DNA of 35,749 nt from a virus (Duplodnaviria; Heunggongvirae; Uroviricota; Caudoviricetes): the IMG/VR virus record IMGVR_UViG_2541047865_000003; one strand, written 5' to 3'. Positions 1 to 35,749 of this stretch are shown here, piece by piece (position 1 is the first letter of the stretch; every line of letters starts with the position of its first letter). A model generated the notes under the pieces. The model did not search any database, was not told the DNA's origin, and saw only the letters and a program-made list of their open reading frames with translations. A program made the position numbers and the translations under genes.

Positions 1-1602
1 ATGTATAGAACTCACCGACAACACAGCCTGTTAAGCTCTGGTGGAGTGCCATCGTTTATTGGTGGGCTGGTGGTGTTTGTGTCGGCAGCGTTCAATGCAC
101 AAGCTGAAACCTGGTTCGATCCTGCCTTTTTCAAAGATGATCCCTCAATGGTGGCCGATTTGTCTCGTTTCGAAAAAGGACAAAAAATAACGCCAGGGGT
201 TTATCGTGTCGATATTGTTCTGAATCAGACAATTGTAGATACGCGCAACGTCAATTTTGTTGAGTTAACGCCAGAGAAGGGGATTGCCGCCTGTTTGACG
301 ACTGAAAGCCTGGATGCAATGGGTGTGAATACTGATGCGTTTCCGGCTTTTAAACAACTGGACAAACAAGCGTGTGCGCTATTGGCGGAGATTATTCCGG
401 ATGCCAGCGTAACTTTTAATGTGAATAAACTCCGTCTGGAAATTTCAGTACCGCAAATTGCTATAAAAAGTAACGCTCGTGGTTATGTCCCCCCTGAACG
501 TTGGGATGAAGGGATCAACGCGCTATTACTGGGATATTCATTTAGCGGGGCTAACAGTATTCATAGCAGCGCAGACAGTGATTCTGGCGACAGTTATTTT
601 CTGAATTTAAACAGTGGCGTTAATTTAGGCCCATGGAGATTGCGCAACAATTCAACATGGAGTCGTAGTAGTGGCCAAACCGCAGAATGGAAGAATCTCA
701 GCAGCTATTTGCAACGGGCGGTTATTCCTCTGAAAGGCGAACTGACCGTAGGTGATGATTATACTGCAGGCGATTTTTTCGATAGTGTCAGCTTTCGTGG
801 TGTGCAGCTGGCGTCAGATGACAACATGCTGCCAGACAGCCTGAAAGGGTTTGCGCCTGTGGTGCGTGGTATCGCCAAAAGCAATGCCCAGATAACGATT
901 AAGCAAAATGGTTACACCATTTACCAAACTTATGTATCGCCTGGTGCTTTTGAAATTAGTGATCTCTATTCCACGTCGTCGAGCGGTGATTTGTTAGTTG
1001 AAATCAAAGAAGCGGACGGCAGCGTCAATAGCTACAGCGTACCGTTTTCCAGCGTGCCATTACTCCAGCGTCAGGGGCGAATCAAATACGCGGTGACACT
1101 GGCGAAATACAGAACCAATAGTAATGAACAGCAGGAGAGCAAATTTGCCCAGGCCACGTTGCAGTGGGGCGGACCGTGGGGAACGACATGGTATGGTGGT
1201 GGACAATATGCTGAATATTACCGTGCCGCCATGTTTGGTCTGGGATTTAACCTTGGCGATTTCGGAGCAATTTCGTTCGATGCGACCCAGGCGAAGAGTA
1301 CGCTGGCAGACCAAAGCGAACATAAAGGTCAGTCATATCGTTTTCTGTATGCCAAAACGCTCAACCAATTGGGCACTAATTTTCAATTGATGGGCTATCG
1401 CTATTCGACGTCGGGTTTCTACACCCTTTCCGACACCATGTATAAACATATGGATGGCTACGAATTTAATGACGGTGATGATGAAGATACGCCGATGTGG
1501 TCGCGTTATTACAATTTGTTTTACACCAAACGTGGCAAACTGCAGGTCAATATCTCCCAGCAATTAGGCGAGTACGGTTCGTTTTATTTAAGTGGTAGCT
1601 GA
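1..1602 (+). CDS. Fimbrial outer-membrane usher protein (FimD/PapC family), 5' fragment; reading frame ends at the prophage junction
   Basis: 533-aa ORF with a signal-peptide-like N-terminus (…AAFNAQA) and FimD-like motifs (ADLSRFEKGQ, PGVYRVDI, RGYVPPERWDEGINA, LASDDNMLPDSLKGFAPV, GQSYRFLY, YRYSTSGFY, FYLSGS). Ushers are ~850 aa; here the frame stops at TGA 1600-1602, where Mu-end-like sequence begins. True start may lie upstream of the window. Confidence 0.8.
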   Translation: MYRTHRQHSLLSSGGVPSFIGGLVVFVSAAFNAQAETWFDPAFFKDDPSMVADLSRFEKGQKITPGVYRVDIVLNQTIVDTRNVNFVELTPEKGIAACLTTESLDAMGVNTDAFPAFKQLDKQACALLAEIIPDASVTFNVNKLRLEISVPQIAIKSNARGYVPPERWDEGINALLLGYSFSGANSIHSSADSDSGDSYFLNLNSGVNLGPWRLRNNSTWSRSSGQTAEWKNLSSYLQRAVIPLKGELTVGDDYTAGDFFDSVSFRGVQLASDDNMLPDSLKGFAPVVRGIAKSNAQITIKQNGYTIYQTYVSPGAFEISDLYSTSSSGDLLVEIKEADGSVNSYSVPFSSVPLLQRQGRIKYAVTLAKYRTNSNEQQESKFAQATLQWGGPWGTTWYGGGQYAEYYRAAMFGLGFNLGDFGAISFDATQAKSTLADQSEHKGQSYRFLYAKTLNQLGTNFQLMGYRYSTSGFYTLSDTMYKHMDGYEFNDGDDEDTPMWSRYYNLFYTKRGKLQVNISQQLGEYGSFYLSGS

Positions 1603-1677: not shown

Positions 1678-2259
1678 TTACAATCCTACCGCGTCATCCT
1701 TCCTCTGACTATCTACCGGAAAATACCGGTAGAGCGTCGATAACCCCACCCCGTAGATAATGGCCAGTTGCTGGCGGGTATGCCCCTTAGCCAATAGCCG
1801 CCCAATCTGTTCTCGCTCATGAGGCTTTAATGCGTTGGGCCTTCCACCTATGCGTCCCTGTGCTCTGGCTGCTGCTAACCCGGCCAATGTTCGTTCGACG
1901 ATCAACTCACGTTCCATTTCCGCCAGTGCCGACATCACATGGAAAAAGAAACGCCCCATGGCAGTGCTGGTATCAATACTGTCTGTTAAAGAGCGGAAGT
2001 GGGCACCGCGTTCATGTAACTCTGATATCAGTGCGATCAGGTTCTTAACGCTGCGCCCCAGCCTGTCCAGTTTCCACACGACCAGGGTGTCTCCGCTATT
2101 AACGCACTTTAAAGCGCGTTTCAGACCGGGGCGGCTGGCAACTTTTCCGCTCATACGGTCTTCAAAAATGCGGTCACAGTTTGCGCTTATGAGTGCATTA
2201 CGCTGTAAATCGCTGTTCTGGTCGATTGTTGATACGCGGATATAACCAATGACGGCCAT
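1678..2259 (-). CDS. gin: Serine-recombinase DNA invertase (Gin/Hin/Cin/Pin family)
   Basis: 193-aa product from MAVIGYIRVSTIDQNSDLQRNAL…, closely matching the Gin/Hin N-terminus (catalytic Ser in VST, C-terminal HTH …STLYRYF). ATG at 2257-2259 preceded by a GGAGGAG RBS. The track ORF 1678..2421 is an upstream in-frame extension. Confidence 0.85.
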   Translation of the reverse strand: MAVIGYIRVSTIDQNSDLQRNALISANCDRIFEDRMSGKVASRPGLKRALKCVNSGDTLVVWKLDRLGRSVKNLIALISELHERGAHFRSLTDSIDTSTAMGRFFFHVMSALAEMERELIVERTLAGLAAARAQGRIGGRPNALKPHEREQIGRLLAKGHTRQQLAIIYGVGLSTLYRYFPVDSQRKDDAVGL

Positions 2260-2321
2260 CAATTCTCCTCCTCTATGTCGCGGTGGGAGGATTTTTACAG
2301 ATTTCGCTATGTGTAACCGCT

Positions 2322-2347
2322 TTTCCAAAAACCTTGGTTTGGGAGAA
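2322..2347. repeat. gix/hix-like recombination crossover site (copy next to gin)
   Basis: 26-bp site TTTCCAAAAACC-TT-GGTTTGGGAGAA, resembling the Hin hix consensus TTCTTGAAAACC-AA-GGTTTTTGATAA. Inverted relative to the 4154-4179 copy, sharing a ~21-bp identical core. Confidence 0.75.
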
Positions 2348-2800
2348 GGTTCGGCATTACCCGTTGGTGTGCCTGTCCCGTGGCCTTCCGCCACTCCGCC
2401 AACAGGCTGGCTAAAATGCAATGGTGCGGCTTTTTCTGCTGAAGAATACCCGGAACTGGCAAAGGTTTATCCGACAAATAAATTGCCTGATTTACGCGGT
2501 GAATTTATTCGTGGCTGGGATGACGGACGTGGAGTGGATGCCGGGCGACAATTATTATCTTCACAGGGGGATGCAATAAGAAATATTGAGGGATTCGCAG
2601 ATGGCGGGATCGGTATGTCTTTTGATGCAATCAGAGGGGCTTTTTACGATGCAGGAACACGATCAGCGAGAATGCCGAATAACACAACTACTATAGACAA
2701 AACCGATGACCTTGGATTCGACGCCTCTCGTGTCGTGCCAACAGCTAATGAAAACCGTCCACGTAACATCGCCTTTAATTATATTGTGAGGGCTGCATAA
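2348..2800 (+). CDS. Alternative tail-fibre C-terminal variable segment (Sv'), no own start; would fuse to the constant S N-terminus after inversion
   Basis: Frame open through the crossover site, encoding the same NLGLGE junction as the S gene, then a receptor-binding-like region (PVGVPVPWPSATPPTGWLKCNGAAFSAEEYPELAKVYP). Stop at 2798-2800 overlaps the start of the downstream assembly gene. Confidence 0.65.
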   Translation, partial: GSALPVGVPVPWPSATPPTGWLKCNGAAFSAEEYPELAKVYPTNKLPDLRGEFIRGWDDGRGVDAGRQLLSSQGDAIRNIEGFADGGIGMSFDAIRGAFYDAGTRSARMPNNTTTIDKTDDLGFDASRVVPTANENRPRNIAFNYIVRAA

Positions 2801-3393
2801 TGAAACCTGTTTTTGATGAAAATGGGCTGGCTACAGTGCCGGGTGATATGCGTTGTTTTTATTATGATGCAGTAACGTCTGAATATACGGGCTGGTCTGA
2901 TGAATATATTAATACTGGCGTAAGTATGCCCGCCTGTTCCACTGGTATTGACCCGGGCGAATACATTCCGGGGAAAGTGGCAGTATTTACGGGTAAGGGA
3001 TGGAGCCATGAAGAAGACCACCGCAATGAGACTGTTTACTCAATCGAAAATGGCGCAGCTGTTACAGTGGATTATATCGGTGCCATCAAAGACGGTTATG
3101 TCACGCTTTCACCGTTAACGCCATACGATAAATGGGATGGTGAGAAATGGGTGACAGATACTGAGGCACAGCATAGTGCCGCACTAGACGCGGCAGAAGC
3201 ACAGCGCCAGTCGCTGATTGATGCTGCAATGGCTTCCATCAGTCTGATTCAACTGAAATTACAGGCCGGGCGGAAGCTGACGCAGGCAGAAACAACCCGA
3301 CTTAACGCCGTGCTGGATTATATTGACGCGGTGACGGTAACAGATACCAGCACTGCGCCGGATGTCATCTGGCCTGAACTGCCGGAGGCGTAG
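2800..3393 (+). CDS. Tail-fibre assembly protein (U'-like, alternative orientation)
   Basis: 197 aa with the conserved C-terminal assembly-chaperone motif (…DTSTAPDVIWPELPEA). TAATG overlap with Sv'. Confidence 0.75.
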   Translation: MKPVFDENGLATVPGDMRCFYYDAVTSEYTGWSDEYINTGVSMPACSTGIDPGEYIPGKVAVFTGKGWSHEEDHRNETVYSIENGAAVTVDYIGAIKDGYVTLSPLTPYDKWDGEKWVTDTEAQHSAALDAAEAQRQSLIDAAMASISLIQLKLQAGRKLTQAETTRLNAVLDYIDAVTVTDTSTAPDVIWPELPEA

Positions 3394-3805
3394 GCCATTC
3401 AATATCTGGCGCACCGGAAGTATCGACCAGTTCCAGTGTGTCCAGATAATCCAGCCACAAATTATATTGCGCCAGTTCCTCACCTTTCAGGCGACCAATC
3501 GCCGCTTTACCAGGCCATTGCTTACTGTTTATGTATTCGTTGACCTGATTAATCAATTGCTGCTTTTCCAGTTCGGCTGCGGCAATTTGTTCCTCATGAG
3601 TTGGCGGTGGAATATCAATCCATGCAGGCATTCCGTCGATGACACCTCTGTATTTTCCTTCTGGTGCTTCCTTCATAAATTCGGCGGCAACAGTGTCGTC
3701 AATTTCGATTCCATCATCGGGCCATTCGCCGGATTCCTGATAAGCGATTTTAAGCTCCACAGGGAAAAACGCATTTTTATCGGCACTGAAAATATATTTC
3801 TGCAT
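3365..3805 (-). CDS. Tail-fibre assembly protein (U-like, currently expressed orientation)
   Basis: 146 aa, C-terminus …DTSGAPDIEWPTPP. Immediately follows the S gene; 3' end converges on and overlaps the U' 3' end. Confidence 0.75.
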   Translation of the reverse strand: MQKYIFSADKNAFFPVELKIAYQESGEWPDDGIEIDDTVAAEFMKEAPEGKYRGVIDGMPAWIDIPPPTHEEQIAAAELEKQQLINQVNEYINSKQWPGKAAIGRLKGEELAQYNLWLDYLDTLELVDTSGAPDIEWPTPPAVQAR

Positions 3806-3807
3806 TT

Positions 3808-4653
3808 CTACCGTCCTATCGAAATATAACTGAATCTGTATTGCTGTGAGATATCACTGGTTGCCACACGCCACGCTGAATTACTGATATGTTCAAAATT
3901 TACAGACAAAACCTGCGGGGCAGGATTCGACGGGTCTGACTGAACGGCATCAGACATAACACTGACTGAAACCATCGGCTGATTAGGGAATGGTATAGGG
4001 AAGTGTCCACTGATAAAGCGGGTCGTGTTTCCTGAAAAAGTGCCAAACTGAACAATATATCCACCTGGTAGCCTGAACCATCCCGAACCAGAAGCGAATG
4101 CTCCCATATCCGGTATCTGATTATCTCCTGTGCCCACATCCCTTTTCGCCGCTTCTCCCAAACCAAGGTTTTGAAGAAAGGCTGCCTTATCGGGAATATC
4201 CGCACCGTTCTGGTCTTTGGCCAGTTTCTCCGCCAGCTTGTTCAGCACTGTGGTCGCAAAGTTCGGATCGTTGCCAAGGGCATCAGCCAGCTCTTTCAGC
4301 GTATCCAGTGTTTCTGGGGCTGTACCTGCAAGCGCAGCAATCGCCCTCGCCACAAATTCTGTCGTCACCAGCTTTTTGCTGTTGTCATTAGCTGCAGGCG
4401 TGGGGGCTGTTGGCGTACCCGTGAATGTTGGGCTGGCCTTCGTCGCATACTGGGTATGCGGGTCGGCCGCTGCGATGTGTTTCGCGAGATCTGAACCGCC
4501 TTTTTCAACCTGCTGTTTCAGGTATGAAGTACGGCTGGCCAGCTGTTTAGCCTGACGGTTAGAAATTCCATCAGGCCCACCCAGTACGGGGTCGGAGACC
4601 TCAATCTGGTAGATGCCGTCTTCCCACTGCGGGGTTTCGGGTAGATTTGCCAT
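3808..4653 (-). CDS. Tail-fibre protein (constant N-terminal part 4180..4653 plus variable part inside the invertible segment)
   Basis: 281 aa with a typical tail-fibre N-terminus (MANLPETPQWEDGIYQIE…) and the hix-encoded NLGLGE junction. Crossover site lies inside the coding sequence at 4154-4179. Confidence 0.85.
   Translation of the reverse strand: MANLPETPQWEDGIYQIEVSDPVLGGPDGISNRQAKQLASRTSYLKQQVEKGGSDLAKHIAAADPHTQYATKASPTFTGTPTAPTPAANDNSKKLVTTEFVARAIAALAGTAPETLDTLKELADALGNDPNFATTVLNKLAEKLAKDQNGADIPDKAAFLQNLGLGEAAKRDVGTGDNQIPDMGAFASGSGWFRLPGGYIVQFGTFSGNTTRFISGHFPIPFPNQPMVSVSVMSDAVQSDPSNPAPQVLSVNFEHISNSAWRVATSDISQQYRFSYISIGR
4154..4179. repeat. gix/hix-like recombination crossover site (copy inside the tail-fibre gene)
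   Basis: TTCTCCCAAACC-AA-GGTTTTGAAGAA. Inverted partner of 2322-2347. Confidence 0.75.
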
Positions 4654-4655
4654 AA

Positions 4656-5240
4656 TTAACTGCTCCCGTGGTTATAGCTGCCGTCATAGTTGACGGTGTT
4701 GTTGTAGCGAATGGCGACAGACTGATACTCCAGGCTCGCCAGATGGCAGCGGGCCGGAGCAAAGGCAGCGAGCGTCTGGCGTAACAGAGCCGCCTGATCG
4801 TTAGTGATGGGCTGTTGAAGGATGACGCGATAGACCGCCCAGGCTTCCGCATCGCCGTGGACAAAAAGCCCGTTATAAGTGTGTTTGCCGTCGTATCCGA
4901 TCTGGCCAGTGCCTTCAATCAGATCCACTTCGCCGAAGCCGAAACGGCGGATAATTTCCCGGATTGACCACGGCGTCCCTTTGTAGCGGTGCAACTCGAT
5001 AGCGGATTTGATAAGCGTGCGACGTACATCGTCTGACTCCGCCAGTTCCCAGCCGTCACCGAACAGCGAGAACTGTTCGCCCAGCCATGGCAGCGCAGAG
5101 CTGTCGACAATATCGACGAGGTAGACCATCAACACGCTCAGGTCGATGCTGTCCAGTCTTCCGGCCAGATTGCCCAGTGCCCTGAAGCTGATATCACCCT
5201 CAAGTGCTGGCGGGAGTTTTAGCGTCTCAGCCATCGACAA
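4656..5240 (-). CDS. Tail protein (P2 gpI-like / Mu gp48-like)
   Basis: 194 aa directly between the baseplate J-like gene and the tail-fibre gene. Call rests on position and size; start uncertain (overlaps upstream gene). Confidence 0.6.
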   Translation of the reverse strand: MSMAETLKLPPALEGDISFRALGNLAGRLDSIDLSVLMVYLVDIVDSSALPWLGEQFSLFGDGWELAESDDVRRTLIKSAIELHRYKGTPWSIREIIRRFGFGEVDLIEGTGQIGYDGKHTYNGLFVHGDAEAWAVYRVILQQPITNDQAALLRQTLAAFAPARCHLASLEYQSVAIRYNNTVNYDGSYNHGSS

Positions 5241-6330
5241 CTCCCGTGATAGTTACGTTGATGGCGGTACAGTTAGCCCACTCATTCTCTGCAAGAACAA
5301 CAAGTTCAAGGCCGGGTAGTTCAACCTGGTAAACACCGCTGACAGTCAACACGGCGTTAATTTGTCCGGGGACGATATCCACACCCAGCTTGGTTCTTCG
5401 GGCTGCAACCCAGTTCTGGATGGCGTTGTTTGCCTCGTCTTTTACCGAGTTTGCATCCTGATTGCGGTAGATGGTGATCTGGGCATCTATGGTGTAATCC
5501 ACCTGCACGGGCGTTTTAGCCCGGACGGTATCAGTGAGCGGCCTGACTTTTTCGCCTGAGCAGAAGCTCTCTACCAGCGTGAGGATGCTGTCGTCCGGCA
5601 GGCCGGTACTGAGCAGTGGATACAGCTCTACGGTGCCCGGAACCGGGGAGAGCACGGCGACGTCAACGATGTTGGGATGGGCCTGCATGGCATGAAAGCG
5701 GTATGCCATACGGCTTCCGGCATTTGTGAAAGACTCCGGGGCCAGTTTGATACGTTCCCGAAGTCTGTCATTGTCTTCCTGCTCTGAACCGCCAGAGCTG
5801 GCTGCCAGATTGGTTACCTGCAGGTCGACGTTATCAATCTCATCGAGCAACTGACTGACCTGCGCAGGTTGCCAGTCGTTGCCAGCGGCTCCTGGTTCGG
5901 TACAGGTGGCCGTGGCATTGACCAGCAGCAATCCGGCTTTCAGTACCACGTCCGTATCGGTGGCAAAAATAATGCTGTCGGAAGCGCTGACACGGGTACC
6001 TGCCGGGATCAGCACATCAATGGCCAGTTCCTCATCCACGGAGAACTGGAGCGTGGTGGTAGCAGGCTGCGCGGCAAGGCGGTACACACCAACCAGTTCA
6101 CCGAGGTAGTCAATCATCGGCTCACGGGCAAAGGCGACCAGATTCTGTTTGGCCGCTTCCTGCGCCGCCACCCTGACCAGCATTTCACGGTATGCCCACA
6201 GGTCAATCAGCAGGCGCTCAGCCTGAGCGGGGTACAGCGTTTTGCCGGTTGCAGCTTCGTACTGTGCAATCATTTCTGCCGTGATTTTGTCGGCATCACG
6301 TTCAATAAAGTCGGGTTCTGTCAGCGCCAT
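5227..6330 (-). CDS. Baseplate J-like protein (Mu gp47 / P2 gpJ family)
   Basis: 367 aa, positioned between the gpW-like and gpI-like genes. Overlapping stop/start couples it to neighbours. Confidence 0.75.
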   Translation of the reverse strand: MALTEPDFIERDADKITAEMIAQYEAATGKTLYPAQAERLLIDLWAYREMLVRVAAQEAAKQNLVAFAREPMIDYLGELVGVYRLAAQPATTTLQFSVDEELAIDVLIPAGTRVSASDSIIFATDTDVVLKAGLLLVNATATCTEPGAAGNDWQPAQVSQLLDEIDNVDLQVTNLAASSGGSEQEDNDRLRERIKLAPESFTNAGSRMAYRFHAMQAHPNIVDVAVLSPVPGTVELYPLLSTGLPDDSILTLVESFCSGEKVRPLTDTVRAKTPVQVDYTIDAQITIYRNQDANSVKDEANNAIQNWVAARRTKLGVDIVPGQINAVLTVSGVYQVELPGLELVVLAENEWANCTAINVTITGVVDG

Positions 6331-27414: not shown

Positions 27415-27825
27415 TTAACCCGTATTTTTTAATCTTTCGAACGCTGCGGACAGCTCCTTAAGCTGTTTTTCCATATCAATCATTCGCTGTTTTTCCTCAG
27501 CGCCTCGCAGCAACTCTTTTCGCACCTCTGGCTCCAGTTGGTTGAGCAGCTCCAATAACTTCAGATCAGACTGGTTGAAATGCTGCTCCTGATTAGCTGG
27601 CTGTGCTTTCTCTACCCCAACAGCTTCCCCTTTACCAGTAAGTAGCCAATCTATTGATATGTTCAAATGGGTGCTTAGCGCAACAAGAGCCTCTGCATTA
27701 GGTTCTCTCTCTCCACGCAGATAGTTTTGAAGTGAGCGATATGGAATTTTTGACAAGTCTGACAATGCCTTAATTGTCAGACCCTTAGCATCCATCGCTT
27801 CGCGCAATCTCTCTTTTATACTCAT
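27415..27825 (-). CDS. Prophage repressor (XRE-family HTH)
   Basis: Start at MSIKERLREAMDAKGLTIKALSDLSKIPYRSLQNYLRGER… (HTH), C-terminal coiled-coil-like region. Divergent from the early operon across an ~88-bp promoter/operator region. Confidence 0.7.
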   Translation of the reverse strand: MSIKERLREAMDAKGLTIKALSDLSKIPYRSLQNYLRGEREPNAEALVALSTHLNISIDWLLTGKGEAVGVEKAQPANQEQHFNQSDLKLLELLNQLEPEVRKELLRGAEEKQRMIDMEKQLKELSAAFERLKNTG

Positions 27826-27841
27826 TTGAACATATCTCAAT

Positions 27842-27869
27842 TTGACATACCCGTTTGGGTGCGTACAAT
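27842..27869 (+). promoter_or_regulatory. Candidate sigma70 early promoter (TTGACA-16-TACAAT) with overlapping operator dyad
   Basis: TTGACA at ~27842-27847 and TACAAT at ~27864-27869, upstream of the Ner-like gene. Inverted repeat TTGGGT(N11)ACCCAA straddles the -10; a further ACCCAA lies ~20 bp downstream. Confidence 0.5.
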
Positions 27870-27913
27870 AGACCCAATAGAGTACATCATAACCCAACAG
27901 GAACACGGTGCAT

Positions 27914-28138
27914 ATGAACAAACAACAAGTTCGGGCACGGCTGGTTGAAAGAGGCAGTAGCTTGCGCCAGTTCGCGCTTAACGCGGGCTATGAGCCACGA
28001 ACAGTCACCCAGGCTGTCAGCCGCTGGGCAGGCAAAAGCGAACTTCCACGCGGTCGTTTGACTTATCGGATTTTGCGAGACCTTTCGGTCGCAATAGGCA
28101 AAGAAGTTACCCCCGGCATCCTCAAGGAGGCGTCATGA
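27914..28138 (+). CDS. Ner-like DNA-binding early regulator
   Basis: …LRQFALNAGYEPRTVTQAVSRWAGKSE… resembles the Mu Ner core; first gene of the early operon, divergent from the repressor. Confidence 0.65.
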   Translation: MNKQQVRARLVERGSSLRQFALNAGYEPRTVTQAVSRWAGKSELPRGRLTYRILRDLSVAIGKEVTPGILKEAS

Positions 28139-29361: not shown

Positions 29362-31131
29362 ATGAGTGCCGCCCTGACTGAACGACTGGTTTATGTTGCC
29401 CGCGCGGCACGTGACGCGGGGCATGGTAAGCGTGGTGCGATATATGATGCCGCCTGCGCCGAACTGGGCATTTCCCGCGCCACCCTGCTGCGCAAGCTGA
29501 AGGAGGTATCAGTGACTGACAAACGTAAAAAACGCGCCGATGCCGGGCGCAGTGCCCTGAGCCGCGACGAAGCCGCGCTGATATCTGCCACGCTGCGCGA
29601 GGCCACCCGTAAGAACGGTAAGCGCCTGTATTCCATCGCGGATGCGGTGGAGACCCTGCGGTCAAACGGCTTTATCACTGCTGGCAGAACGGACGAGGCC
29701 ACAGGCGAGTTTTTCCCGCTGTCCGAGGACACCATCAGCCGCGCCCTGCGGAACTATGGTCTGCACCCGGAACAGCTTGACGCACCGGCCCCGTCGTCCG
29801 AGATGGCCAGCCTGCATCCCAATCACGTCTGGGAGATTGATGCCTCACTTTGTACGCTTTACTACCTGAGCAACGGCCATAAAGGGTTGCAGGTGATGGA
29901 CAGCTCGAAGTTCTACAAGAACAAGCCTGCCAACATCGCCCGCATCGCCAGTGACCGCGTGTGGAGTTACGAGATTACCGACCATACCAGCGGCTGGATT
30001 TACGTTGAGTACGTGATGGGTGCGGAATCTGGTGAGAACCTCTGTTCTGTGCTTATCAACGCCATGCAGGAGCGCGGCGGCGCGGACGTGCTGCACGGCG
30101 TGCCGAAAATACTCTACCTTGATCCCGGTTCGGCGAACACCGCTGGCATGACGAAAAACATGTGCCGCTCGCTGGGCATCAATCTGATAGCGCACAAGCC
30201 GCATAACGCCCGCGCCACCGGGCAGGTGGAAAAGGCCCGTGACATTATCGAACGTAAACTGGAGCCGGGTCTCAAATTCCAGCCGGTTCATAGCCTGGAC
30301 GAACTGAACGCGCTGGCGGTGAAATGGCGCAGCCACTTTAACGCCACGGCGGTCCACAGCCGCCACGGTAAAACCCGCACGGATATCTGGCTGAAGATTA
30401 CTGCTGACCAGCTGAAAAAAGCGCCATCCGTTGAGGTTTGCCGCGAACTGGCGGTGGCCGCACCGGAACTCCGTAAGGTCACACCAAAACTGCGCGTCTC
30501 GTTCCGGGGCAATGAGTTTGACGTTTCGACGGTACCGGGCGTACTGGTCGGCGAAAAACTGATGATTACCCGTAACCCGTGGCGCAGCGATGTGGCGCAG
30601 GTGGTGCTGACCGGTGAGGACGGTCACGAGACGTTCTTCCTGGTCGAAGAGGTCAGAAAGAACGAGTTCGGCTTTGCCGAAAGCGCGGCGGTATTTGGCG
30701 AAAACTACAAAGCCCTGCCGGAGACCCCGGCGCAGACGGCGGCAAAAGAAATCGAAGAGCTGGTTACGGGCACCGATAACGCCACCGATGCAGCTGCTGC
30801 ACGCAAGGCGAAGGCGCTGCCGTTCGGCGGGCGACTTGACCCGTACAAACATATCGACGACACCACGCTTCCGGCCTATATGCCGAAGCGCGGTCAGGCT
30901 TCAGACGTGCGCGGGCCGCGTATTGAGCAGCGTCCGCTGACCCATGTGGAGGCGGCGAAAGCCCTGCGCGAGAAGTTTGGCGCTAACGGCCATATCTGGA
31001 CGCCGGAACATTACCGCCAGTTAACGGCGCAGTACCCGGATGGCGTACCTGAAGCCGCGCTGGATGAGGTGATGGTTACCCTGACCACTCCGGCCCGCAA
31101 CAGCGTTATCAGCATCGTTAACGGTAACTGA
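29362..31131 (+). CDS. DDE transposase (Mu A-like)
   Basis: 589 aa with an N-terminal DNA-binding region and candidate DDE residues (WEIDAS, LYLDPGS, HNARATGQVEKAR); followed by the AAA+ ATPase partner; RBS GGAGG. Confidence 0.8.
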   Translation: MSAALTERLVYVARAARDAGHGKRGAIYDAACAELGISRATLLRKLKEVSVTDKRKKRADAGRSALSRDEAALISATLREATRKNGKRLYSIADAVETLRSNGFITAGRTDEATGEFFPLSEDTISRALRNYGLHPEQLDAPAPSSEMASLHPNHVWEIDASLCTLYYLSNGHKGLQVMDSSKFYKNKPANIARIASDRVWSYEITDHTSGWIYVEYVMGAESGENLCSVLINAMQERGGADVLHGVPKILYLDPGSANTAGMTKNMCRSLGINLIAHKPHNARATGQVEKARDIIERKLEPGLKFQPVHSLDELNALAVKWRSHFNATAVHSRHGKTRTDIWLKITADQLKKAPSVEVCRELAVAAPELRKVTPKLRVSFRGNEFDVSTVPGVLVGEKLMITRNPWRSDVAQVVLTGEDGHETFFLVEEVRKNEFGFAESAAVFGENYKALPETPAQTAAKEIEELVTGTDNATDAAAARKAKALPFGGRLDPYKHIDDTTLPAYMPKRGQASDVRGPRIEQRPLTHVEAAKALREKFGANGHIWTPEHYRQLTAQYPDGVPEAALDEVMVTLTTPARNSVISIVNGN

Positions 31132-31141
31132 GGAGGAAGGC

Positions 31142-32308
31142 ATGCTGGTACTGAAGCAACAACTGAAAGAGGCCCGCATCCCGCAGGCGGTGGTGGCAAG
31201 AGCCGTCGCCGTTTCCGAGGCCACGCTGGCCCAGATTGTGAACCATAACGAGTGGCCACGCACCAGCCCCGAAGAGGTACGCCAGCGTCTGGCGTTGTAT
31301 CTGGAAAGTAAGGGGATTGATACAGCGAAAAGTTTTGATGCTGCACAGGGCGCTGTCACGCCCCGTACAGCGGGTACTACCGATAAAACCAACCTCAGTG
31401 AGGAAGAGAACATGTTACTCAAAAAGCAGGTGTTATTTCCAGCAACCAAAAAAGCGTTTGGCCTTTTCCGTGATCCGTTCGCCGATGAAGCCATGCAGGG
31501 CGCGGACGATGTGTTCACCACGCCGGATATCCGCTACGTGCGTGAGGCGCTGTTCCAGACCGCCCGCCATGGTGGCTTTCTGGCGGTTATCGGCGAGTCC
31601 GGTGCGGGTAAATCCACGCTGCGCCGCGACCTGATTGAACGCGTCAACCGCGAGAACGCGCCGGTGATTGTAATTGAGCCATACATCATCGCCATGGAAG
31701 ACAACGACGTGAAGGGCAAAACCCTGAAGGCGGCAGCTATCGCCGAGGCCATCATCAGCACCATCGCGCCGCTGGAGAGTATCAAACGCAGCCAGGACGC
31801 CCGCTTCCGCCAGTTGCACCGCGTCCTGAAGGACAGCAGTCAGGCGGGTTTCAGCCACGTTCTGGTGATTGAGGAGGCCCACAGCCTTCCCATTCCGACG
31901 CTGAAGCACCTTAAACGCTTCTTCGAACTGGAGTCCGGCTTCAAAAAACTGCTGTCCATCGTGCTGATTGGCCAGCCTGAACTGGCGGACAAACTGTCCG
32001 AACGCAACATGGAAGTCCGTGAGGTCGTCCAGCGCTGCGAGGTGGTTGAATTGCTGCCGCTGGACAACAGCCTCGAAGAGTTTCTGACGTTCAAACTGCA
32101 ACGTGCCGGTAAGCAGCTGGCCGACATCATGGACGCCAGCGCAGTGGAAGCCATCCGCGCCCGTCTGAGCAATCTGGGTAGTAGCCGTAAAAGCATGGTC
32201 AGCCTGCTGTATCCGCTGGCCGTCAGTAACCTGGTGATAGCCGCCATGAATCTGGCTGCTGAAATCGGGGTTCCGCAGGTCAACGCCGACGTCGTCAAAG
32301 GAGTTTAA
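31142..32308 (+). CDS. Transposition ATPase / target-DNA activator (Mu B-like AAA+)
   Basis: Walker A GESGAGKST, Walker B VLVIEEAH, N-terminal HTH-like region; immediately downstream of the transposase. Confidence 0.8.
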   Translation: MLVLKQQLKEARIPQAVVARAVAVSEATLAQIVNHNEWPRTSPEEVRQRLALYLESKGIDTAKSFDAAQGAVTPRTAGTTDKTNLSEEENMLLKKQVLFPATKKAFGLFRDPFADEAMQGADDVFTTPDIRYVREALFQTARHGGFLAVIGESGAGKSTLRRDLIERVNRENAPVIVIEPYIIAMEDNDVKGKTLKAAAIAEAIISTIAPLESIKRSQDARFRQLHRVLKDSSQAGFSHVLVIEEAHSLPIPTLKHLKRFFELESGFKKLLSIVLIGQPELADKLSERNMEVREVVQRCEVVELLPLDNSLEEFLTFKLQRAGKQLADIMDASAVEAIRARLSNLGSSRKSMVSLLYPLAVSNLVIAAMNLAAEIGVPQVNADVVKGV

Positions 32309-32310
32309 TC

Positions 32311-32580
32311 ATGAAATCCATCGCCGATATCAACCAGCAGATGAACAAGGTGCAGTCCGCCATTATGGCGCTCAACGCCATGAACACTACCGTGCAGAGC
32401 GTCATGATTGCTGGCAGTAAGCCGGTTATCCGTATCGCCCGCAACGGGCACTGTGCCCGCCTGCTGGAGCAGGGCAAAGCGAGTTATACCCATGTTGGCC
32501 ATGACGGCTCAGGGCGCTTCCGTCAGGGCGTCTTTGAGTTGCATGGCTGCCGTATTACCTGGTCAGAGTCGTTACATTAA
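32311..32580 (+). CDS. Hypothetical early protein (89 aa)
   Basis: AGGAG RBS; starts 3 nt after the B stop; several His/Cys residues. Confidence 0.45.
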   Translation: MKSIADINQQMNKVQSAIMALNAMNTTVQSVMIAGSKPVIRIARNGHCARLLEQGKASYTHVGHDGSGRFRQGVFELHGCRITWSESLH

Positions 32581-32597
32581 CCATAAGGTGAACAGAG

Positions 32598-33209
32598 ATG
32601 AGCGAAGTAAATAAAGAAAACTACATGAAAGACCGCAAGGGGCGTCTGGTGCCGGTTGACCAGGTGTCTGACTATGACCTTGCGATGGACTCTTTCGTTA
32701 AAGAACAGGTTGTCGCCGCGAAGGTTAAACGCGATGAACTCAGTGACTTCAAGCGTCGTGCCTTTGACGAGTGCTATGCCTGGCTTGACCTTGTGGCCGA
32801 GAAGTACGGCAGAACGCGTGGCGGTGCCAAAGGCAACGTGACCTTCAGCAGCTTCGACGGTGCTCAGCAGATCACCATCCGCGTGCAGGAAACCCTGACC
32901 TTCGGGCCAGAGCTGCAGATTGCCAAAGACCTGATAGACGAGTGCGTCACCGAGTGGTCGGAAGGCGCGAACGCCAACCTGCGGGCCATCATCAGCGATG
33001 CTTTTCAGGTGGACAAAGAGGGCCAGCTTAATACCGGACGTATTCTTTCCCTGCGCCGCGTCAAGATTCAGGACGAGCGCTGGAACCGGGCAATGGAGGC
33101 CATATCGGAATCACTGCAGGTGGCAATGTCCAAAACCTATATTAATTTCCGGGAGAAAGATAAACACGGGAAGCTAATTAATATTCCGTTAGATATCGCT
33201 GCCATTTAA
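32598..33209 (+). CDS. Hypothetical early protein (203 aa; possibly the DUF3164 family of Mu-like prophages)
   Basis: Occupies the semi-essential early region; family assignment is from memory only. Confidence 0.45.
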   Translation: MSEVNKENYMKDRKGRLVPVDQVSDYDLAMDSFVKEQVVAAKVKRDELSDFKRRAFDECYAWLDLVAEKYGRTRGGAKGNVTFSSFDGAQQITIRVQETLTFGPELQIAKDLIDECVTEWSEGANANLRAIISDAFQVDKEGQLNTGRILSLRRVKIQDERWNRAMEAISESLQVAMSKTYINFREKDKHGKLINIPLDIAAI

Positions 33210-33287
33210 TTTTAATTCAATTTCTTTTTATTTCGGCGTCAGTGCCGTGGGCTTCTGCACGCCGAAAACAGCATTAAGGAATAAATC

Positions 33288-33476
33288 ATGTCCATCAAAT
33301 GTATCAACTGCCAGAAAGGTATCACCACCCTGAAGTTCAGCGACGCCAGCGTCATTTCCTCCGGTAAGTACCGCGTACCAGCCGTCCTCATCACGCTGGT
33401 ATGCCCACACTGTAGCCAGCATTACTACACCGAAGTCCCGGCCATGGAATTCATCCCTTGTGAGGCAAAGAAATGA
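33288..33476 (+). CDS. Com-like zinc-ribbon protein (62 aa)
   Basis: Two Cys pairs (CINC…CPHC). Pattern and length resemble Mu Com as recalled from memory (MKSIRCKNC…CPRCKRH). AAGGAA RBS; 3' end overlaps the next gene (ATGA). Confidence 0.5.
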   Translation: MSIKCINCQKGITTLKFSDASVISSGKYRVPAVLITLVCPHCSQHYYTEVPAMEFIPCEAKK

Positions 33477-33745
33477 TTACTGCAAAAGAAGCCGAAAAAC
33501 GGACCCGTGAAATTGTCGCGGAATATATCAGTGAATGTGGTTGTGAAAATCCCAACCATATCCGGCAGGTATTAATCAAATTAATCAGCATGGCTTCACA
33601 CGCCATCGTAGCAACAAATGGCCTAGATCAGGCTATTTACGTTCTTCACGCCACCAGTGACCACCTGAGAAAAATGCCGCCGCTGTACGAGCTGGAAATT
33701 ACTGAGGACGGCCACGTGAAAGTTATCGGCGTATCACGCCATTGA
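33473..33745 (+). CDS. Hypothetical protein (90 aa), translationally coupled to the Com-like gene
   Basis: ATGA overlap with the Com-like ORF; no recognisable motif. Confidence 0.45.
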   Translation: MITAKEAEKRTREIVAEYISECGCENPNHIRQVLIKLISMASHAIVATNGLDQAIYVLHATSDHLRKMPPLYELEITEDGHVKVIGVSRH

Positions 33746-33760
33746 TTTGGGGAAGATAAG

Positions 33761-34057
33761 ATGAAAGGCATGAAATTATATAACCGTTCGACGATCTACA
33801 ATCTGGCCCTCAAAACCTTCGGCCCAGAAGCTCAGGCTCTGAAGCTGATGGAAGAAGCTGCCGAACTGGCCGCTGCTGCTGCCCGCAACATGAACGGACT
33901 GGGCAATGAAGTTGATCTGGCAGGCGAACTGGCTGACGTTGAAATCATGATTGAACAGTTCCGCCTAAACGGGATGGGCCTGATGATTGATTTTCATAAG
34001 CAGAAAAAGCTGGAACGCCTTGCCGAACGCCTGGGGGTGACTTATGCCGCAGAATAA
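33761..34057 (+). CDS. MazG-like nucleotide pyrophosphohydrolase-domain protein (98 aa)
   Basis: EExxEL (MEEAAELAAAA) and downstream ELADVE acidic motif typical of the MazG/HisE-like fold; size matches stand-alone phage MazG-like proteins. Confidence 0.5.
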   Translation: MKGMKLYNRSTIYNLALKTFGPEAQALKLMEEAAELAAAAARNMNGLGNEVDLAGELADVEIMIEQFRLNGMGLMIDFHKQKKLERLAERLGVTYAAE

Positions 34058-34733
34058 TGAAAAGCTGCTGGAGAAGTTAAAAAAGCTACTTGCGCTGGCT
34101 AAATCCGATAACCCCCATGAAGCGGCACTGGCACTGCAACGCGCCCAGAAACTGATGCAGGCCTATAACATCACCCAGGCTGACCTCGCACTCAGTGATA
34201 TTGATGAAAGCGTCAGTAACTACTGGGCTGCAGGTAGCGTTAATCCGCCGCGTTATATGCTGGGTCTGCTGGATATTATCCAGGTGGCATTTGGCGTTAA
34301 GTCTATTATTCACTCCGGCTTTAAACCCGGCGTTGGCTTTTACGGTAATAAAGACCGGGTTGAACTGGCCTCATATACATGGGAGGTACTGGCCAGACAG
34401 TTAATCATGGCCCGTAAAAACTATATTCGACAGCAGAATAAAAGAATCAAAAACACGACCAAGACCAGCCGTGGTGACAAATTTGCCGAAGGGTGGGTTC
34501 TGGCCGTGCGTAGCGAGGTTCATTTATTTGCTATGTCCCGCGAAGAACGGGAGCTGGCAAACCTCTGGCTTGAACAAAAATACCCTGATTCAGGAACAAC
34601 CTCTGGCCGCAAAGCCGGTAAATCCCGTGACGCGGACATGTCCCGCCACATCGGTTACAGAGAGGGAGAAAACGTCCGTCTACATCAGCCTGTCAGCGGG
34701 CAGGAACAGCGGAAGCTGGGGAGTGGCTTATGA
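34044..34733 (+). CDS. Hypothetical early protein (229 aa)
   Basis: Helical N-terminus (LLEKLKKLLALAKSDNPHEAALALQRAQKLM) and basic C-terminal region; GGGGGTGA RBS. Confidence 0.45.
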   Translation: MPQNNEKLLEKLKKLLALAKSDNPHEAALALQRAQKLMQAYNITQADLALSDIDESVSNYWAAGSVNPPRYMLGLLDIIQVAFGVKSIIHSGFKPGVGFYGNKDRVELASYTWEVLARQLIMARKNYIRQQNKRIKNTTKTSRGDKFAEGWVLAVRSEVHLFAMSREERELANLWLEQKYPDSGTTSGRKAGKSRDADMSRHIGYREGENVRLHQPVSGQEQRKLGSGL

Positions 34734-34945
34734 TGGCTGAATCAATTGTATGTGCCTTGTTCTGGTATGGTCTCGTGGGGTGGTGTACTGCTGAACTGCA
34801 CCGCCGTTCAGGGTTTTACTCACGTTACAGCGGTACCGGACACTGGATCAGTTGGGCCGTTATGTTCCTGTGCTGGCCTGTCGCGCTTCCTTTATATGTC
34901 GACTATATCGGTGGCGCAGGTAAAAGGAGTGGCAATGATGACTAA
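34730..34945 (+). CDS. Small hydrophobic protein (71 aa, two predicted TM helices)
   Basis: ATGATG overlap with the upstream stop; Trp-rich hydrophobic segments. Confidence 0.4.
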   Translation: MMAESIVCALFWYGLVGWCTAELHRRSGFYSRYSGTGHWISWAVMFLCWPVALPLYVDYIGGAGKRSGNDD

Positions 34946-35363
34946 GCAGCGTCTTATTCAACTCATTCATATTGCCCGCAGCGACCTCCAGATGGATGAG
35001 GACACCTACCGCCAGATGCTACAGGGGCTGACCGGCAAAGCCTCAACCAAAGGGATGGATACCCCACAGCTAAACCGCGTGCTGGAATCAATGAAAAAGA
35101 AAGGCTTTCGCATTAAGCCTGCCGGGAAAGCCAAGTCCGGCTTACCGCTCGACAGCCATCCGCAGTCAAAGAAAATCCGTGCGCTATGGCTTGAAATGGC
35201 TGCCGCAGGCATCGTCCGTGACAGTTCAGAGCAGGCGCTGGCGCTGTGGGTTAAACGGGAAACCGGCATCAGCGCGTTACGCTGGCTCAGCAATGAGCAG
35301 GCAAGTAGCGTGATTGAGAAACTGAAGAAGTGGCAGCGCAGAGCTGCGGGAGTGAAGCAATGA
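34935..35363 (+). CDS. GemA-like regulatory protein (Mu gp16 family)
   Basis: Start MMTKQRLIQLIHIARSDLQMDEDTYRQML…, preceded by an AAAGGAG RBS; located immediately before the Mor-like gene as in Mu. Confidence 0.55.
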   Translation: MMTKQRLIQLIHIARSDLQMDEDTYRQMLQGLTGKASTKGMDTPQLNRVLESMKKKGFRIKPAGKAKSGLPLDSHPQSKKIRALWLEMAAAGIVRDSSEQALALWVKRETGISALRWLSNEQASSVIEKLKKWQRRAAGVKQ

Positions 35364-35749
35364 GCGACCTGAATCAGTTTCGTAGTAAAGGGCCGGAACT
35401 GTTGGTGGAACTGGCACAGCATACCTCTGAGACTGTCCGCGAGATTATTGATATCGAACCCGCAGTTGCCGACCAGATTGGTCAGGCCGTCGCGAACCGC
35501 ATGATGCAGGTCTGGGGTGGGCAAAACGTCTATTTTCCGATGGGCATGGTCTGGAAGGTCAGCCAGCGCGACCGGGAAATTTTCCTGGAGTTTGACGGGC
35601 GCAACCATCACGAACTGGCCCGCAAATTTGGTGTTTCACTACAGTGGGTTTACAGCGTGGTGAAGCGGGTCAGAAAAGAAGAACTGGATCGGATGCAGGG
35701 CAAACTGTTTGATGGCGAACCTGATGCCGATACAGGGAAAAAGGAGTAA
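35360..35749 (+). CDS. Mor/C-family transcription activator (middle operon regulator-like)
   Basis: 129 aa from MSDLNQFRSKG…; C-terminal HTH (HELARKFGVSLQWVYSVVKRVRK) and central GGQNVYFP motif parallel Mu Mor (GGGQVYIP … NTVYKAIRR, from memory); ATGA overlap with the GemA-like stop. Confidence 0.65.
   Translation: MSDLNQFRSKGPELLVELAQHTSETVREIIDIEPAVADQIGQAVANRMMQVWGGQNVYFPMGMVWKVSQRDREIFLEFDGRNHHELARKFGVSLQWVYSVVKRVRKEELDRMQGKLFDGEPDADTGKKE

Follow-up and report, generated by a model that had tools for sequence, protein, structure and literature searches.

A stand-alone MazG-like gene in the early operon of a Mu-like prophage

The MazG-like gene and its product

The stretch of DNA analysed here, a virus record of 35,749 nucleotides (IMG/VR IMGVR_UViG_2541047865_000003; hereafter the window), is a transposable prophage of the Mu/BcepMu type. 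Its plus strand carries at 33761..34057 a small gene whose product is assigned, from its sequence and predicted fold, to the MazG-like nucleoside triphosphate (NTP) pyrophosphohydrolases. The coding sequence runs for 98 codons from an ATG at 33761 to a TAA at 34055-34057. It is preceded by a Shine-Dalgarno-like GGGGAAG (33749..33755, plus strand, as read from the letters) lying 5 nt before the ATG, and its last 14 nt are shared with the next gene, whose start is at 34044; overlap of this kind usually points to an operon with tight packing. The open reading frame (ORF) is a real gene under purifying selection. Compared with a 68%-identical homologue from E. coli (locus L002), the ratio of non-synonymous to synonymous substitution rates (dN/dS, Nei-Gojobori) is 0.15, and the copy in Klebsiella phage KP12 differs by 15 synonymous changes and a single non-synonymous one.

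The original prediction drew attention to an EExxEL sequence followed by a second acidic motif in this 98-residue product, and both are indeed there. The first putative metal-binding motif (EExxE) is formed by E31-E32-A-A-E35-L36 (codons at 33851..33868, plus strand) and the second (ExxD) by E56-L-A-D59 (33926..33937, plus strand). The acidic stretch continues beyond the latter as E56-L-A-D59-V-E61 (nt 33926-33943), and 20 residues separate E35 from the E56 motif. The MazG/HisE superfamily is characterized by a metal-binding signature consisting of EExxE, a spacer of about 12-28 residues and ExxD; the motif of the all-alpha NTP-pyrophosphohydrolase superfamily was reportedly defined by Moroz et al. 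in 2005. Judged from its sequence, the EExxE-20-ExxD arrangement of the window protein fits this signature. Both motifs stand out in an alignment (A3) of 50 diverse representatives, all but one of which are 32-51% identical to the query: G21, Q25, E31, E35, E56, D59, I62, Q66, K83 and L87 are invariant, while Y13, A16, E32, L36, A58, V60, M63, R86 and R90 are conserved in at least 90% of the sequences. The same alignment thus includes conserved basic residues of the C-terminal helix, K83, R86 and R90 (codons at 34007..34030, plus strand).

The window protein is very probably a minimal, single-domain member of the all-alpha MazG/HisE NTP pyrophosphohydrolases. In the PHROGs database it falls into phrog_2245, annotated 'nucleoside triphosphate pyrophosphohydrolase', with an E value of 4.7e-31. 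Pfam scores stay just under the cut-offs (PRA-PH, PF01503, 19.6 bits for a cut-off of 21.3; MazG, PF03819, 13.5 bits for a cut-off of 22), and an NCBIfam search with the window protein gave nothing useful. Nevertheless, Pfam MazG is matched at E<0.01 by 20 of the 50 family members (PRA-PH by 3 of the 50), and one relative, P0088, reaches 33.8 bits, over the gathering cut-off, so that the family is tied to MazG by transitivity. The monomer model obtained by single-chain prediction consists of two long helices. Compared with UniProt/BFVD phage pyrophosphohydrolases, the predicted structure gives template modelling (TM) scores of 0.7-0.8 at 23-34% identity. A single-sequence search of the PDB was uninformative: because of the Ala/Glu-rich helices of the query, it brought up nothing but designed helical-repeat proteins and a hydrolase that is not related. 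As proposed at the outset, the protein is a stand-alone single domain with its acidic metal-binding residues intact. Its predicted all-alpha fold is superposable on solved MazG/HisE structures.

The family so delineated is very large. A word-indexed protein search returned 85 homologues at E<=1e-3, mostly called 'hypothetical protein', and an exhaustive profile search at the same threshold gave 15,730 representative clusters, 6,651 of which also passed E<=1e-10. A few homologues already bear a label, either 'NTP pyrophosphatase (non-canonical NTP hydrolase)' in IMG or 'nucleoside triphosphate pyrophosphohydrolase family protein' at NCBI. The phage proteins named 'nucleoside triphosphate pyrophosphohydrolase' in PHROG 2245 and in UniProt/BFVD are the window protein's own family and do not differ from it in kind. 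The earlier identification is thus correct, and the family it points to is already annotated in PHROGs, UniProt/BFVD, IMG and sometimes RefSeq and conforms to what one expects of phage MazG-like genes. In the literature searched, no biochemically characterized member of the PHROG 2245-type subfamily was found.

The early operon and its prophage

The rightward early operon starts with genes for a small helix-turn-helix protein, a DUF3102 protein, a 589-residue ORF read as the transposase (29362-31131, plus strand; an integrase-core domain, rve, is present in the L002 homologue) and a MuB-like AAA+ protein (31142-32308, plus strand). After MuB come, in order, an 89-residue ORF, a DUF3164 gene, a 62-residue zinc-ribbon ORF, a 90-residue ORF, the MazG-like gene, a DUF2786/DUF7168 gene, GemA and Mor. 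The placement of the MazG-like gene in an early accessory region is therefore borne out, since it lies within a Mu-like early operon between MuB and Mor. The DUF2786/DUF7168 gene (34044..34733, plus strand; Pfam E values 2.1e-13 and 1.5e-24) overlaps the 3' end of the MazG-like gene by 14 nt at its start, and because of this overlap the two are probably translationally coupled. No gene-specific signal rises above chance: 3 promoter-like sites were found where shuffled sequences lead one to expect 3.1, and 8 terminator-like sites where they give 5.5 +/- 2.4. The simplest view is consequently that the MazG-like gene is an early-operon gene, which would be silent in the lysogen and expressed on induction.

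Among the ORFs scanned on the late arm, lysis-gene, tail-fibre and terminase-sized ORFs lie on the minus strand, as does a CI-type repressor gene (27415-27921). The layout resembles that of BcepMu and is unlike that of Mu, the scanned late genes being on the minus strand and the minus-strand repressor facing the plus-strand early operon, which is ended by Mor at the last base of the window. In L002, a sister Mu-like prophage of E. coli, a Mu Gam gene (4900-5430 of that locus) takes the place of the window's DUF3164 gene (32598-33209), apparently as an alternative cassette for this position of the early region. The largest intergenic gap among the ORFs read in 32300-35749 is a 78-nt segment just upstream of the zinc-ribbon ORF (33210-33287). 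It holds a stable hairpin (RNA minimum free energy -22.9 kcal/mol, z -3.2 relative to shuffled sequences) with no T-run after it.

At the other end, positions 1-1602 (plus strand) are taken up by a host fimbrial usher gene of which just the 5' portion is present (PapC_N and positions 2-320 of the 549 of the Usher model). The usher ORF ends at 1600-1602, where a sequence resembling a Mu end starts (about 1600-1680): TGATGCGCC GCGCGATAAATGCGCC ... GAGATAAATGG, with GATAAATG repeated. The prophage thus appears to have transposed into the usher gene and disrupted it. A Gin/Hin-type serine invertase gene (Resolvase and HTH_7 domains; 1678-2421, minus strand) adjoins oppositely oriented ORFs for a tail fibre and a tail-fibre assembly protein (2249-3829 on the plus strand and 3808-4653 on the minus strand, respectively), and the arrangement over 1678-4653 suggests that this end of the prophage has an invertible host-range region of the G-segment kind. 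No partner nucleotide-modification pathway was found among the early, end-region and lysis ORFs scanned.

Distribution of the gene

Close homologues were collected from one genome per species, which gave 22 loci with proteins 60-100% identical to the window protein, in Mixta, Pantoea, Pseudocitrobacter, Erwinia, Serratia, Pectobacterium, Dickeya and other hosts. All 22 are prophages of the same type, with the MazG-like gene between MuB and Mor. The commonest order is zinc-ribbon ORF, MazG-like gene and DUF2786 gene, the first two joined by an ATGA stop/start overlap and the last overlapping as well. In a set of 5,426 complete E. coli genomes, the MuB-like gene of this group was found in 639 and a detectable MazG-like gene in 271 (about 5%). 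The gene is therefore accessory, being carried by roughly 40% of the related E. coli prophages, an approximate value, since sensitivity is limited with so short a query. When 50,697 phage records were searched with tblastn, even at E<=10 only 7 were returned, of which 4 were convincing: the close subfamily, common in prophages, is seldom seen in phage isolates that have been sequenced. A literature search on MazG in Mu-like phages gave nothing specific.

Relatives at 30-48% identity are found in the early or replication modules of unrelated phages and prophages. One lies a few genes 3' of genes for DNA polymerase A, a DUF2800/PD-(D/E)XK nuclease and a single-stranded DNA-binding protein, and 5' of primase-like and SNF2 genes; another sits between DnaB/Dam and terminase. 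A third, in a Chryseobacterium prophage that is not Mu-like and has a terminase, is beside RusA and DUF2786 genes. There the DUF2786/DUF7168 gene is immediately upstream of the MazG-like gene (L033, and L041 5250-5960), so that the adjacency of these two genes recurs in two unrelated phage types. Many members of the wider family are extended at the N- or C-terminus, in varied ways, and one group has a Lar-like zinc ribbon fused to it.

Several individual records call for comment. In the close subfamily, P0022, P0025 and P0026 (169 residues) have an extra C-terminal segment of about 70 residues, and P0022 ends again in ...GVTYAAE, as though the extra residues had been introduced immediately ahead of the original C-terminus. 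P0074, a 94-residue protein from an ENA metagenome contig, is identical to the window protein over residues 1-37 and continues as a typical HisE (PF01503) tail; it is probably a chimeric assembly and less likely a natural recombinant of two superfamily members. L017, a 572-bp contig of the 'Halobellus sp. Atlit-31R' assembly, shows 100% protein-level identity both to the MazG-like gene and to the start of the DUF2786 gene, and is almost certainly a contamination of that haloarchaeal assembly.

The two ORFs upstream

The original prediction placed the gene directly after a 'Com-like' pair, with which it might form one accessory cluster. Only half of this pair stands up. The 62-residue zinc-ribbon ORF (CxxC...CxxC; 33288..33476, plus strand; PHROG 3401) is a conserved neighbour, syntenic in 17 of the 22 Mu-like loci. 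In most of them its stop overlaps the MazG-like start (ATGA), and it abuts or overlaps the MazG-like gene in L009-L016, L018, L020, L022, L024, L028 and L029; it is missing from four Pectobacterium/Dickeya loci. By contrast, the 90-residue ORF that lies between it and the MazG-like gene (33473..33745, plus strand; PHROG 3691, no Pfam match) occurs in only 3 of the 22 related loci, namely the window, L002 and L019, and is absent from phage KP12. It is a variable insertion, that is, an insertion-deletion polymorphism, and not part of a conserved pair.

The label 'Com-like' is itself weak. The 62-residue ORF has two CxxC knuckles and the length of Mu Com, but in a single BLASTP comparison with that protein (E value 0.003) only the two knuckles were aligned, around a 14-residue gap, and the Com family is absent from its Pfam matches at E<=0.1. 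In Mu, com-mom lies between the invertase gene and the prophage end; in the window the corresponding interval beside the gin-like invertase has room for no ORF, and no search for mom was made elsewhere. An identity with Mu Com was for these reasons rejected.

Two-CxxC ORFs or fusions lie beside MazG-like genes in unrelated phages too (L036, L048, L055, L061, P0084, P0106, P0187 and others). Such an ORF is upstream of, or fused to, the MazG-like gene in about 6-7 of about 28 distant loci, as against 2% of mechanically called small ORFs, and extensions with two or more CxxC pairs were counted in 9 of 150 representative homologues. An association of zinc ribbons with MazG-like genes beyond Mu-like phages is suggestive only, because mechanically called ORFs are a poor control for the background and the early regions of phages often contain zinc ribbons. 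The adjacency may reflect a functional pairing, or merely this abundance.

Discussion

Candidate substrates and mechanism

The protein would be made early in lytic growth, from the Mu/BcepMu-like early operon, and by analogy with solved MazG-type enzymes it would act as a homo-oligomer. Conservation and the same analogy suggest that E31, E32, E35, E56 and D59 hold Mg2+, and that K83, R86 and R90 of the last helix bind the substrate phosphates, while Y13 and the aromatic residue preceding G21 might stack on the base. The enzyme would cut the alpha-beta phosphoanhydride bond of a nucleoside 5'-triphosphate, releasing the monophosphate and pyrophosphate. Oligomeric state, catalysis and substrate are all predictions here. 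As to the last, I would give an even chance to (deoxy)nucleoside triphosphates, (d)NTPs, the protein serving either in the house-cleaning of non-canonical dNTPs or in the tuning of the dNTP pool during replication by transposition with the host replisome. This class is ranked first because most minimal MazG domains that have been assayed, including a cyanophage enzyme, act on (d)NTPs, and because the family keeps company with replication genes.

Comparison with characterized MazG proteins sets the window protein in context. The Sulfolobus solfataricus MazG (PDB 1vmg), BcMazG (5ie9) and Bacillus subtilis YpjD (2gta) are chromosomal archaeal or Bacillus proteins, whereas the window gene is phage-borne; their single-sequence similarity to the window protein is sub-significant and they share no genomic context with it. 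iMazG of Vibrio DAT722 (2q5z, 2q73), reportedly a tetramer with a preference for dCTP and dATP, is about 20% identical to the window protein, and its gene belongs to an integron cassette, not to a phage early operon. The E. coli MazG (3cra, 3crc) has two tandem MazG domains (PDB chains of 220-239 residues), in contrast to the single domain of 98 residues found here, and its gene is downstream of relA, in the mazEF operon (bioRxiv 10.1101/2022.06.09.495361). The MazG of cyanophage S-PM2 is likewise a phage MazG-family pyrophosphohydrolase, which has been proposed to manipulate host physiology; it prefers dGTP and dCTP and has no (p)ppGpp activity (PMC6850273). It is, however, a canonical member of Pfam MazG, as found in marine phages, whereas the window protein stays under the cut-off of that model.

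Alternative readings

The reading ranked second is an alarmone hydrolase. Early removal of (p)ppGpp would forestall the stringent response and blunt alarmone-dependent abortive infection (toxicity of TIR effectors via MazEF). The only experimental precedent is Atd1 of Pectobacterium phage PcCB7V, a comparably small phage MazG-like protein that hydrolyses ppGpp (Km about 50 uM) but neither rNTPs nor c-di-GMP, and that gives protection from TIR-STING and retron-TIR (bioRxiv 10.1101/2022.06.09.495361). Like the window protein, Atd1 is a stand-alone minimal MazG/HisE-type domain (86 residues, as against 98) with twin acidic motifs and an accessory position, and it is a precedent for the counter-defence reading that the original prediction put forward. 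An early, accessory gene present in some but not all related E. coli prophages also fits the pattern typical of host-takeover and counter-defence genes. The likeness does not extend far, however. From its position and the published description, Atd1 is presumed to be QQG33500.1, encoded two genes from the PcCB7V nucleotidyltransferase, and this protein has just EExxE..ExxD in common with the window family, with a shorter spacer between the motifs. Alignment A3 matched it in hhalign with a probability of 0.65% and an E value of 0.088 over 30 columns that cover the motif only, and orthology was rejected. Since only the catalytic motif is shared, Atd1 serves as a precedent by analogy and not by orthology. 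The settings differ too: Atd1 comes from a 146-kb virulent Certrevirus, near a nucleotidyltransferase, whereas the window gene belongs to a Mu-like temperate phage and has no such neighbour, no nucleotidyltransferase domain being found among MuB, DUF3164, the zinc ribbon, DUF2786, GemA and Mor. Furthermore, the cyanophage MazG was long assumed to degrade (p)ppGpp and neither binds nor hydrolyses it (PMC6850273). An alarmone substrate is possible but rather unlikely.

Counter-defence could also take the form of destroying an immune nucleotide, such as the chain-terminating ddhNTPs made by prokaryotic viperins, signals of the dITP type or other triphosphate messengers. The accessory early-region position and the very wide spread of the family in phages are compatible with such a role, and a pyrophosphohydrolase could in principle act on any nucleoside triphosphate analogue. 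Cyclic oligonucleotide messengers, however, lack the alpha-beta pyrophosphate bond cut by MazG enzymes, and Atd1 was inactive on c-di-GMP (bioRxiv 10.1101/2022.06.09.495361). No known anti-defence gene is adjacent to the MazG-like gene; neither its product nor those of five neighbours matched PADLOC-DB at E<=0.01, and the literature search found no demonstration of a MazG-like protein destroying a defence nucleotide. This reading is improbable. Less probable still, and indeed very doubtful, is a mainly non-catalytic or regulatory role, in which the MazG fold would serve as a binding or signalling module, for instance with the zinc-ribbon or the DUF2786 protein. The tight, overlapping arrangement of the three genes in most relatives and the zinc-ribbon-like extensions in 9 of 150 representative homologues speak for it, and staphylococcal phage dimeric dUTPases are documented to moonlight as derepressors in the induction of Staphylococcus aureus pathogenicity islands (PMC5608427). 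Yet all five metal-binding acidic residues and the basic residues of the C-terminal helix are invariant or nearly so across thousands of relatives, as selection for catalysis predicts. That the gene encodes a phage HisE, the phosphoribosyl-ATP pyrophosphatase of histidine biosynthesis, is hardly credible: the PRA-PH score is under the Pfam cut-off, the TIGR03188 equivalog model gives 15.8 bits for a cut-off of 42.7, the family matches MazG far more often than PRA-PH, and the neighbours are Mu early genes with no his-gene context. The TIGR03188 score, the family matches and the gene context effectively refute this identity.

A broader conjecture concerns the neighbours. The zinc-ribbon ORF, the MazG-like gene and the DUF2786/DUF7168 gene might constitute one translationally coupled module in which the zinc-ribbon protein partners or regulates the pyrophosphohydrolase. 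The idea comes from three observations: each gene overlaps the next in most of the related Mu-like prophages, several unrelated phages have zinc-ribbon-like segments joined to MazG-like genes or placed directly before them, and a DUF2786 gene adjoins the MazG-like gene in a non-Mu Bacteroidota prophage. It has no more than an outside chance of being right. If it were, and if the target were an alarmone or a defence-derived nucleotide, the three genes would make up a widespread, uncharacterized host-takeover or anti-defence module.

Significance

As the result of a genome scan, the annotation of this gene is correct, routine and unsurprising. Small stand-alone MazG-like genes are nevertheless among the commonest accessory genes of phage early and replication modules, and the handful of phage proteins of this kind that have been assayed gave conflicting results, dGTP and dCTP being the substrates of the cyanophage enzyme and ppGpp that of Atd1. 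Presence of the window gene in about 5% of complete E. coli genomes, within inducible Mu-like prophages, makes for an easy experimental handle. The MazG-like gene could thereby help settle the role of such enzymes in a phage that replicates by transposition via the host replisome.
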